This document shows positions 5,776-7,303 of a stretch of 22,538 nucleotides of DNA, one piece after another. The stretch is from a virus (lineage: Duplodnaviria; Heunggongvirae; Uroviricota; Caudoviricetes), in IMG/VR virus record IMGVR_UViG_2667527827_000002; one strand, 5' to 3'. A model generated the notes under the pieces. The model made no database searches. It was given only the letters and a program-made list of their open reading frames with translations, and had not been told where the DNA came from. The position numbers were made by a program, and so were the translations under genes. Numbering within the stretch: the first letter of the stretch is position 1; each line of letters begins with the position of its first letter.

Positions 5776-6828
5776 TTATTTCCCCACCAGCTCGTTTATC
5801 TCTTTCACTGTCTGGTTAAACCGCTCTGACTCAAGCTCAACACCTAAGGCCCGACGCCCCAGCGCCATTGCTGCTTTTATTGTGGAACCGGATCCCATAA
5901 AAAAATCAGCAACCAGATCACCAGGTCGACTACTGGCATTGATTATTTGCCTGAGCATATCCGCCGGTTTCTCACACGGATGTTTACCCGGGTAGAACTG
6001 AACGGGTTTATGCATCCAGACATCGGTATAAGGCACGGAGACTGATACGGAGAAATAGCGCCGGAGAGATTTAAACTCATCCAGCAATTCAGAATATTTG
6101 CGATTCAGTGAATCATAAGATGCCACCAGCTGGTGGTGTGGTTGTTCCAGTTGTTGTTCCTGAAACTTCTCTGCCGCTATACGGGAAAACAGTGCCTGTA
6201 ACTTCCGATAGTCAGCCTCATTCGGCAACTGCCACTGACTGGCACCAAACCAGTGGGAAACCATATTTTTCTTACCTGTGGCTTCGGCAATTTGTTTTGC
6301 CGTTATACCCAGTTCGGCACGAGCATCCCTGAAATACGATATCAGCGGTGCCATTATGTGCTGTTTGAGTTCCCTTTCTTTTGCCGCATAGCCGTCACTT
6401 TTGCCGCGATATGGCCCCTGGTAATGTTCAGCAAACAGAACGCGCTCTGTGGCAGGAAAATATGCGCGCAGACTTTCTTTATTACACCCATTCCAACGTC
6501 CGGACGGCTTCGCCCAGATGATATGGTTAAGCACGTTGAAACGTTCACGCATCATGATCTCAATATCAGATGCCAGGCGATGCCCACAGAACAGGTAAAG
6601 GCTTCCGGCAGGTTTTAACACCCGCCAGAACTGGGCCAGACAGTGGTCCAGCCACTTAAGGTAATCTTCGTCCCCTTTCCACTGATTGTCCCAGCCGTTG
6701 GGTTTCACCTTGAAGTACGGCGGATCGGTAACAATCAGGTCAATGGAATCATCAGGCAGGGACTGAATAAAATGCAGGCAATCAGCGTTGATTAAATCAG
6801 CACTGTTTATTTTTACAGTATTTTTCAT
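5776..6828 (-). CDS. DNA methyltransferase, beta-class N6-adenine/N4-cytosine type (PF01555-like)
   Basis: 350-aa ORF. Catalytic motif IV DPPY (…DLIVTDPPYF…) lies near the N-terminus and the AdoMet-binding motif I FxGxG (…DFFMGSGSTI…) near the C-terminus, the order typical of beta-class amino-methyltransferases. ATG at 6826-6828, TAA at 5776-5778. Confidence 0.85.
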   Translation of the reverse strand: MKNTVKINSADLINADCLHFIQSLPDDSIDLIVTDPPYFKVKPNGWDNQWKGDEDYLKWLDHCLAQFWRVLKPAGSLYLFCGHRLASDIEIMMRERFNVLNHIIWAKPSGRWNGCNKESLRAYFPATERVLFAEHYQGPYRGKSDGYAAKERELKQHIMAPLISYFRDARAELGITAKQIAEATGKKNMVSHWFGASQWQLPNEADYRKLQALFSRIAAEKFQEQQLEQPHHQLVASYDSLNRKYSELLDEFKSLRRYFSVSVSVPYTDVWMHKPVQFYPGKHPCEKPADMLRQIINASSRPGDLVADFFMGSGSTIKAAMALGRRALGVELESERFNQTVKEINELVGK

Positions 6829-6978
6829 GGATCAGTAAGCGTAACTCTGGTAGGCTCACTCTGCTTTTGCGCTAAAGCAGTGGGCCGTGGTTCGCTTGTG
6901 ACCAGTAAGCATGAGCGAATGGCTGGCAGGTGCTACCAACACCCACCAGCCGCCCATTTTCACAGCAGGAAACCGCCA

Positions 6979-7182
6979 TTACTGGCAGCGTCTGAATTTA
7001 TTCCCGTACCCGCCGTTATCCTTCGCCAGACCCGCCAGAACTAACTGAGTCAGTATTAACTGGCACCGGGCTTCGCTTACTCCGGTAGTTCTCGTCATCA
7101 TGCGTGGCGTTACCCACTTGTCAGCAGGTAAGAAATGAAGGACTGCGGCGGCGGTTTCTGTCATATCTTGCTGTTTTAGCAT
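6979..7182 (-). CDS. Small putative winged-helix DNA-binding protein (FaeA/PapI-like or MarR-like), about 67 aa
   Basis: ORF 6979-7206. An internal ATG at 7180-7182 is preceded by AAGGGA about 9 nt upstream, so this is the probable start (alternative start 7206). Helix-turn-wing-like segment …TPRMMTRTTGVSEARCQLILTQLVLAGLA… The family assignment is a guess. Confidence 0.45.
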   Translation of the reverse strand: MLKQQDMTETAAAVLHFLPADKWVTPRMMTRTTGVSEARCQLILTQLVLAGLAKDNGGYGNKFRRCQ

Positions 7183-7303
7183 GTCTTTTTCCCTTCTGGT
7201 TAACATGACATACCAATAACTCTTGTCTAAAAATCCAGCAAGATAAAAAGTCAGTATTCACGACCACCAGCGTGTTTACTGTACTGCACCAAGTTTACAG
7301 GTA

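Follow-up and report, generated by a model that had tools for sequence, protein, structure and literature searches.

Background

M.EcoGI and M.EcoGII are methyltransferases encoded by lambdoid prophages of Escherichia coli O104:H4 C227-11, with no partner nuclease (PMC5778455). M.EcoGII methylates adenines irrespective of their context (Murray et al. 2018, PMC5778455); its substrates also include single-stranded DNA (ssDNA), RNA and DNA:RNA hybrids, and methylation by this enzyme in vitro blocks 12 of 12 six-cutters and 6 of 6 four-cutters (PMC5778455). Both enzymes are silent in the lysogen and their constitutive expression is deleterious (PMC5778455), and plasmid DNA with 80% N6-methyladenine (m6A) transforms 10^4- to 10^5-fold worse even in non-restricting E. 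coli (Murray et al., PMC5778455). Here we analyse a gene for a methyltransferase of 350 amino acids (aa), most probably an orphan of the same family, in IMG/VR virus record IMGVR_UViG_2667527827_000002, a stretch of 22,538 nucleotides assigned to the Caudoviricetes (hereafter the window, at its full length), together with two genes upstream of it, encoding proteins of 67 aa and 205 aa. An earlier inspection of the letters of the window (the sequence-only reading) had asked whether these genes constitute a cryptic restriction-modification (R-M) module or whether the methyltransferase is an orphan that protects progeny DNA from restriction.

The published architecture of M.EcoGII comprises a catalytic domain (made up of residues 1-134 plus 260-349) and a target-recognition domain (TRD; residues 160-237), the latter a four-helix bundle with a helix-turn-helix (HTH) (PMC11551740). 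Six reconstructed ancestors were all active on both DNA and RNA; site preference was examined in two of them, Anc291 and the deeper ancestor SUPREM, which is 69% identical to M.EcoGII, and experiment revealed neither site specificity nor a motif (Ochiai et al. 2024, PMC11551740).

The methyltransferase and its family

The locus belongs to a lambdoid prophage of E. coli, in which the minus strand carries, in the order of transcription, the Q antiterminator gene, the 205-aa gene, a terminator, the 67-aa gene and the 350-aa methyltransferase gene (Table 1). The methyltransferase, the small winged-helix gene and the AT-rich 205-aa gene listed in the sequence-only reading are all present on this strand, and their assignment to the late region was correct, as they are flanked on one side by a Q antiterminator (PF06530) and on the other, where relatives are intact, by genes for holin, lysozyme and Rz. 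We consider it highly probable that the 350-aa enzyme is an orphan, non-specific methyltransferase of the M.EcoGII family, situated in a Q-dependent late operon between two intrinsic terminators and ahead of the lysis genes.

The 350-aa open reading frame (ORF) matches PF01555 (N6_N4_Mtase; E = 2e-42) over residues 29-341. Its DPPY motif (motif IV, residues 35-38) precedes FMGSG (motif I, residues 310-314), which is the beta-class order, and about 270 residues separate the two; the description of a PF01555-like enzyme with a long region between motifs IV and I was therefore accurate. BLASTP aligned the enzyme with M.EcoGII over 349 residues at 81% identity, with two gaps of one residue each; the true value is probably slightly higher, since the M.EcoGII reference was machine-read, with a few reading errors, from a table of Ochiai et al. 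2024 (Supplementary Table S1; PMC11551740). Identity to Anc291 was 89% (BLASTP) or 88% (global alignment), so that this allele is nearer to Anc291 (88%) than M.EcoGII is (83%). By region, the N-terminal catalytic part is 89% identical to M.EcoGII, while the TRD (residues 160-237) is 77% identical to that of M.EcoGII, from which it differs at 18 of 78 positions with no insertion or deletion, and 86% identical to that of Anc291. A weak Pfam match to HTH_3 (residues 167-193) falls inside the published HTH-bearing TRD.

The enzyme thus resembles M.EcoGII in its length (within one residue), its full-length identity, its beta-class motif order, its HTH-bearing TRD, its location in a lambdoid prophage and the lack of a partner nuclease. 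It differs in being of the SfV/mEp460 type, approximately 80% identical, whereas some Stx2a phages carry 93% alleles. As judged from these alignments, it is a member of the M.EcoGII family. Because it falls inside the sequence range of the enzymes that have been tested (M.EcoGII, Anc291 and SUPREM), the prediction that this allele methylates the N6 position of adenine without sequence specificity is well supported. The methyltransferase is already-known biology, being one further allele of a large characterised family.

Distribution of the methyltransferase block

The block composed of the terminator, the 67-aa gene, the spacer and the methyltransferase gene was found in 1145 of 5426 complete E. 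coli genomes (at least 80% coverage), and matches phages SfV (orf48), mEp460 (gp053), cdtI (orf56), Ayreon and PhiR40_1 with DNA identities of 96.5-99.7% in the pieces that align. All these phages have the same block with the lysis genes next, the latter being found downstream in every intact relative examined; phiP27 was matched as a protein relative of M.EcoGII only (87%). The minimal layout is that of SfV, which reads Q, terminator, orf47 (64 aa), methyltransferase, terminator and holin, and in which orf47 is the only gene besides the methyltransferase in the interval. There is no co-inherited nuclease gene at the block, which is prophage-encoded with no cognate restriction gene. The terminator ahead of the 67-aa gene (7305-7329) is kept in mEp460, PhiR40_1 and cdtI and annotated at the homologous site in SfV and Ayreon, the two phages in which a terminator is also annotated at the place homologous to 5757-5776.

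What distinguishes the five phages from the present locus is the slot between Q and the upstream terminator, which holds other cargo or nothing: it is empty in SfV, mEp460 and Ayreon have one or two unrelated ORFs there, and PhiR40_1 and cdtI have ORFs on the opposite strand. In lambdoid phages, the Q-to-lysis slot carries stx in Stx phages and nmpC in DLP12. The locus resembles such a cargo ('moron') slot in having variable, AT-rich, horizontally exchanged genes between conserved recombination anchors, and departs from it in that the cargo gene goes with a single Q allele and has co-diverged with it, which is unusual for a freely exchanged moron.

Relationship between the methyltransferase and the 205-aa gene

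Spelled out as a Type II system, the R-M module raised in the sequence-only reading would have the 205-aa protein as a fast-evolving endonuclease, the 350-aa enzyme as its cognate methylase and the 67-aa protein as the controller. The three genes do lie close together on the same strand, the 205-aa gene is AT-rich (GC content of 37-40% in the region that holds it as against approximately 50% in the surroundings), its product contains an RDEEK stretch, and the same arrangement recurs in 24 genomes and 26 viral contigs. The distribution of the genes, however, points the other way. The 205-aa gene is present in 52 E. coli genomes of the collection of 5426, and these fall into two layouts, with one genome unaccounted for; 24 have the methyltransferase next to the gene (at least two methyltransferase alleles), while 27 continue with a small-gene homologue of 65 aa and then, in place of the methyltransferase, with an unrelated HTH gene of 235 aa. 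The two genomes of the HTH-gene layout whose annotation was inspected, S88 and FDAARGOS_144, encode the identical 205-aa protein WP_000360285.1. Conversely, 98% of the genomes with the methyltransferase block are devoid of the 205-aa gene. A similar mix was seen in 50 close viral contigs, of which 39 could be classified (11 more are either cut off too soon or ambiguous): 26 carry the methyltransferase, with alleles 80-100% identical, and 13 the HTH gene. The 235-aa HTH protein of S88 was also considered as a truncated methyltransferase, with which it shares no similarity.

Between the 205-aa gene and the methyltransferase gene lie an intrinsic terminator and a recombination breakpoint. Homology to prophages lacking the former ends at approximately position 7376 of the window (query position 1601), and the HTH block, which likewise occurs without the 205-aa gene, shows its homology break at the same place as the methyltransferase block, about 80 bp past the stop codon of the 205-aa gene. 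Nor could the host chromosome be protected by a methylase that lacks specificity and stays off in the lysogen.

The 205-aa family did not display the features of a nuclease either. The D…ExK-like segment on which the endonuclease idea drew does exist in this sequence, as RDEEK at residues 136-140, but it falls in a loop of low confidence and lacks conservation among the 87 family members aligned. Conservation reaches 69% at most in any acidic column of these 87 homologues, so the family has no conserved acidic residue by this measure; the highly conserved positions outside the invariant ones are basic, aromatic, or glycine/proline. No nuclease match was obtained for the C-terminal alpha+beta domain, and among the scanned neighbours of about 10 distant homologues there was neither a recurring partner nor a match to a methyltransferase family.

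Since the 205-aa gene and the methyltransferase gene assort independently and the 205-aa protein lacks nuclease features, we reject the R-M module, which we regard as exceedingly improbable: of the 1145 genomes with the block and the 52 with the 205-aa gene, just 24 have the two side by side. The methyltransferase is, in addition, of the common orphan phage kind that the sequence-only reading had named as evidence against a module (M.EcoGII family, 1145 genomes). The absence of a co-inherited nuclease gene and the conservation of the block independently of the 205-aa gene therefore indicate an orphan methyltransferase, and a false lead towards a hidden restriction enzyme is removed.

Proposed role and alternative explanations

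The other possibility raised by the sequence-only reading, an orphan anti-restriction methylase protecting progeny DNA, fits the evidence and can be narrowed to the M.EcoGII family. By analogy with the characterised members, a role in blunting host restriction is likely. Q would switch on a late operon holding the 205-aa gene, the 67-aa gene and the methyltransferase gene. In the lysogen, the last of these would remain silent because transcription stops at the terminators, as suggested by the M.EcoGII literature and by lambdoid late control; such silence is consistent with a location downstream of Q and with the two terminators (7305-7329 and 5757-5776). After induction, Q-modified RNA polymerase would read through the terminators, and the enzyme would methylate many adenines of the replicating phage DNA shortly before packaging. 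The progeny would then be partly immune in the next host, whose adenine-sensitive restriction systems of Types I, II and III would be blunted. One practical implication is that, given the silence of the related M.EcoGI and M.EcoGII before induction, this gene would probably leave no mark in the methylome of an uninduced lysogen.

Several observations weigh against this interpretation. (i) A divergence of 20% from M.EcoGII, and of 23% in the TRD, could in principle restore some sequence preference. (ii) Between Q and the terminator, a consensus scan of the coding strand yielded no plausible sigma-70 promoter, and no late promoter was shared in an alignment of the region downstream of Q with PhiR40_1 and cdtI. 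(iii) The terminator after the methyltransferase gene (5757-5776) is weak by fold alone (z = +0.7). (iv) Literature searches brought up no work on what M.EcoGII-type enzymes do in vivo, and no study showing a protective role of any family member in phage infection. (v) Heavy methylation may carry a cost, as the poor transformation by plasmid DNA with 80% m6A suggests.

The first of these points leads to an alternative in which the enzyme is an orphan late methyltransferase all right, but one that is sequence-specific or strongly biased. Besides the 18 substitutions in the TRD, it could draw on the site-specificity of more distant beta-class relatives such as M.PflMI, and on the name 'site-specific DNA-methyltransferase' that some RefSeq records give to a near-identical protein. 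That name was assigned automatically and is probably wrong for this protein, the TRD is free of insertions and deletions relative to M.EcoGII, and the allele is nearer than M.EcoGII itself to Anc291, which like the more remote SUPREM showed no motif, all six ancestors being active on DNA and RNA (PMC11551740); we hold a specific enzyme to be decidedly improbable. Only a shade less improbable is it that non-specific methylation serves another end, be it the shutdown of host transcription or replication late in infection, the marking of phage DNA for packaging or recombination, or the methylation of RNA. The activity of M.EcoGII on ssDNA, RNA and DNA:RNA hybrids would agree with such functions, as would the harm done by constitutive expression and the very poor transformation by hypermethylated plasmid even where host restriction is lacking (PMC5778455), and an enhancement of RecA-mediated recombination by m6A has been reported (PMC12403123). 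A slot just before the lysis genes, however, is poorly timed for reprogramming the host, and the block is missing from many related lambdoid prophages, which makes it accessory and no part of packaging; the blocking of six-cutters and four-cutters in vitro offers the simplest selective advantage for a phage. We therefore retain the orphan, non-specific enzyme directed against restriction as the preferred explanation.

The 205-aa gene is linked to Q and encodes a WYL protein

If the 205-aa gene is separate from the methyltransferase, it is on the other hand closely associated with its upstream neighbour. A query made of the 3' half of Q and the start of the 205-aa gene matched the 52 genomes, with the junction covered in 52 of 52, and no genome had this Q 3' half without the 205-aa gene. 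Q likewise stood upstream of the gene in each of the 50 close viral loci, two of which have insertions (L037 and L068), that of L037 being an insertion of approximately 850 bp that separates Q from the 205-aa gene. A variant of the gene with 72% identity travels with an 85%-identical variant of Q. The 205-aa gene is thus cargo linked to a Q allele and separate from the methyltransferase. In one genome, SCPM-O-B-7615, it is interrupted by an IS5-like ISKpn26 element.

The 75-nucleotide gap between Q and the 205-aa gene is occupied by a hairpin (8078-8114) as stable as which none of 200 shuffled sequences was found (0/200). Its 3' arm holds the GGGAGG Shine-Dalgarno sequence of the 205-aa gene, the stem ending 1 nucleotide before the ATG, and its 5' arm contains an in-frame upstream ATG (8103), from which the ORF would encode 214 aa. 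As no U-run follows, this hairpin has the appearance of a mask on translation and not of a terminator.

The 205-aa protein consists of an N-terminal WYL domain and a C-terminal alpha+beta domain, with no DNA-binding HTH; a single helix (residues 3-14) directly precedes the first WYL strand. Its family comprises 490 clusters in an exhaustive HMMER search, mostly of 185-210 aa. Conservation was assessed in an alignment of 87 sequences, and the genome collection was scanned with an alignment of 5 sequences. Invariant in the former are Y23, G26, R33, A47 and K56. The family profile matches the WYL domains of DriD, BrxR and CapW, and in the HMMER alignment Y23, S27 and R33 align with DriD Y168, S172 and R178, residues that contact the ssDNA backbone; mutating Y168 or R176/R178 abolishes DriD activation. 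WYL domains are ssDNA sensors that switch on cyclic-oligonucleotide-based antiphage signalling systems (CBASS), bacteriophage exclusion (BREX) systems and DNA-damage regulons. The 205-aa protein is therefore like the wHTH-WYL-WCX regulators (wHTH, winged HTH) DriD, CapW, BrxR and PafBC in having a WYL domain and in keeping the residues equivalent to the ssDNA contacts of DriD, and unlike them in having neither a wHTH nor linker helices, so that it cannot bind an operator as these regulators do.

Among the known defence genes of PADLOC there were weak WYL matches to the 205-aa protein and nothing more, NCBIfam gave no match to it or to the 67-aa protein, and 50,697 deposited phage records contained no close relative of the gene, with two matches only, at 27-29% identity; literature searches brought up no phage-borne HTH-less WYL protein. 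Distant relatives of 30-37% identity (loci L013, L071, L072 and L006) occupy varied cargo positions of temperate phages. In viral contigs, one distant relative lies directly after a CI-like repressor gene and another between terminase and Rha; relatives in metagenomic contigs adjoin Rha, and one in a bacterial island of Leucothrix stands beside GmrSD_N, RiboL-PSP HEPN and NERD genes.

Such varied cargo positions fit an accessory role in phage-host or phage-phage conflict, on behalf of either party. Judging from the residues retained, the protein most likely binds or senses single-stranded nucleic acid without catalysis, with an output through its C-terminal domain. Because the ssDNA-binding residues of DriD are kept and a DNA-binding domain is lacking, several roles can be envisaged: it could sequester or detect the ssDNA signal by which the WYL-controlled host defences CBASS (CapW) and BREX (BrxR) are derepressed, which would amount to phage counter-defence; it could act as a superinfection-exclusion sensor; or it could tune Q-dependent late expression. 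The pairing of an HTH-less WYL gene with Q is uncharacterised and is the sole mildly novel element of the locus. That the 205-aa protein and its approximately 490 clusters amount to a new class of HTH-less WYL proteins of temperate phages, represented here by a pair co-diverging with a Q allele, is a tentative proposal to which we attach a small probability. A widespread phage family of about 200 aa with a ligand-competent WYL domain and no DNA-binding domain may nevertheless merit a small experiment.

The 67-aa gene and the spacer

The small ORF upstream of the methyltransferase gene extends over 6979-7206 (75 aa) or 6979-7182 (67 aa), the latter start being that of RefSeq in identical prophages. 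The wHTH assigned to it by eye holds at the family level, the 22 relatives matching TrmB (16/22), DprA_WH (14/22) and MarR_2 (14/22), all weakly (best 1.6e-6). Neither the single sequence nor the family profile gave a significant match to solved structures. The protein was also examined as an R-M controller (C) protein and rejected as such: it matches winged-helix families instead of the Xre-type HTH_3 found in C proteins, and a homologue precedes a non-methyltransferase gene, a 51%-identical version lying ahead of the unrelated HTH gene in S88. The 67-aa gene is the first gene past the terminator whether the methyltransferase or the HTH gene comes next, and this fixed position with either neighbour means that its product is no methyltransferase-specific controller. 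It is a fixed companion of the terminator-proximal position rather than of the methyltransferase.

Within the family, the N-terminus MLKQQDMTETA is near-invariant and CQLILTQ in the recognition helix is invariant, while the middle and tail exist in two versions, about 51% identical, one accompanying the methyltransferase and the other the 235-aa HTH gene. Apparent recombinants between the two versions were observed (P0209, P0211 and P0214).

The 150-nucleotide spacer between the 67-aa and methyltransferase genes varies at a single position when the window is compared with three phages, and its fold is strong, with a 14-bp stem. No clear Shine-Dalgarno sequence could be read upstream of the methyltransferase ATG. 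The spacer may serve to control a toxic gene. In Aeromonas phage phiARM81ld, a distant phage homologue, a 'Com-like translational regulator' is annotated at the methyltransferase gene.

Organisation of the window

The coordinates of the features are compiled in Table 1.

Table 1. Features of the prophage portion of the window and of the adjoining scaffold join, in the order of transcription
Feature	Position	Strand	Evidence or remark
cI-like repressor gene		opposite to the rest of the gene series	start of the gene order
cII-, Rha- and Ash-like genes		-	after the cI-like repressor gene
Dam-family methyltransferase	11076-11762	-	PF05869, 1e-45; early region
LexA-like gene, RusA, KilA-N		-	between the Dam-family methyltransferase and DUF968 genes
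DUF968 + HNH domain	8541-9536	-	HNH match PF16784, 4e-6
Q antiterminator	8152-8538	-	PF06530 Phage_antitermQ, E = 5e-48; 128 aa from TTG, 123 aa in RefSeq
Hairpin, 15-bp stem	8078-8114	-	RNA fold -26.1 kcal/mol, z = -4.2
205-aa cargo gene	7459-8076	-	WYL domain ~1-65, alpha+beta domain ~87-205
Intrinsic terminator, 8-bp stem + U-run	7305-7329	-	fold -13.8 kcal/mol, z = -2.6
67-aa winged-helix gene	6979-7182 (75 aa if from 7206)	-	phrog_331, 5e-26
150-nucleotide spacer	6829-6978	-	fold -67.4 kcal/mol, z = -3.1
350-aa methyltransferase, M.EcoGII family, beta-class, predicted N6-adenine	5776-6828	-	PF01555, 2e-42
Terminator-like hairpin + U-run	5757-5776	-	consensus scan; directly after the methyltransferase stop codon
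Run of 10 N, scaffold join	5715-5724		read from the sequence

In identical prophages, the Q gene is named 'antiterminator Q family protein' by RefSeq. The DUF968 protein encoded upstream of Q is a conserved lambdoid protein of the YdfU family, and its gene, the sole nuclease-like gene near the methyltransferase, is found in prophages both with and without the M.EcoGII-type enzyme. The Dam-family gene represents a second adenine methyltransferase in the early region of the prophage, and is also present in S88-type prophages that have no M.EcoGII-type gene.

The window is a scaffold: the 10 Ns, 50 bp past the methyltransferase stop codon, stand in place of the lysis genes, and as the lysis and structural genes of the prophage are absent from the window, it is no contiguous locus. 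Intact prophages of 99.8% identity show the methyltransferase gene followed by those for holin, lysozyme and Rz, the holin starting approximately 67 bp downstream. No tRNA gene was found in the window. A match to STnc130, an enterobacterial small RNA of Rfam, fell below the threshold (7201-7337, plus strand; 31.6 bits against a gathering score of 55); it is antisense to the leader of the 67-aa gene and is mainly the terminator hairpin read on the other strand. Beyond the Ns, positions 1-5703 are an unrelated chromosomal piece with an aldo-keto reductase gene and an ORF of 1544 aa for a BigA-like surface protein, which has a BigA beta-sandwich domain and whose N-terminus is probably cut.

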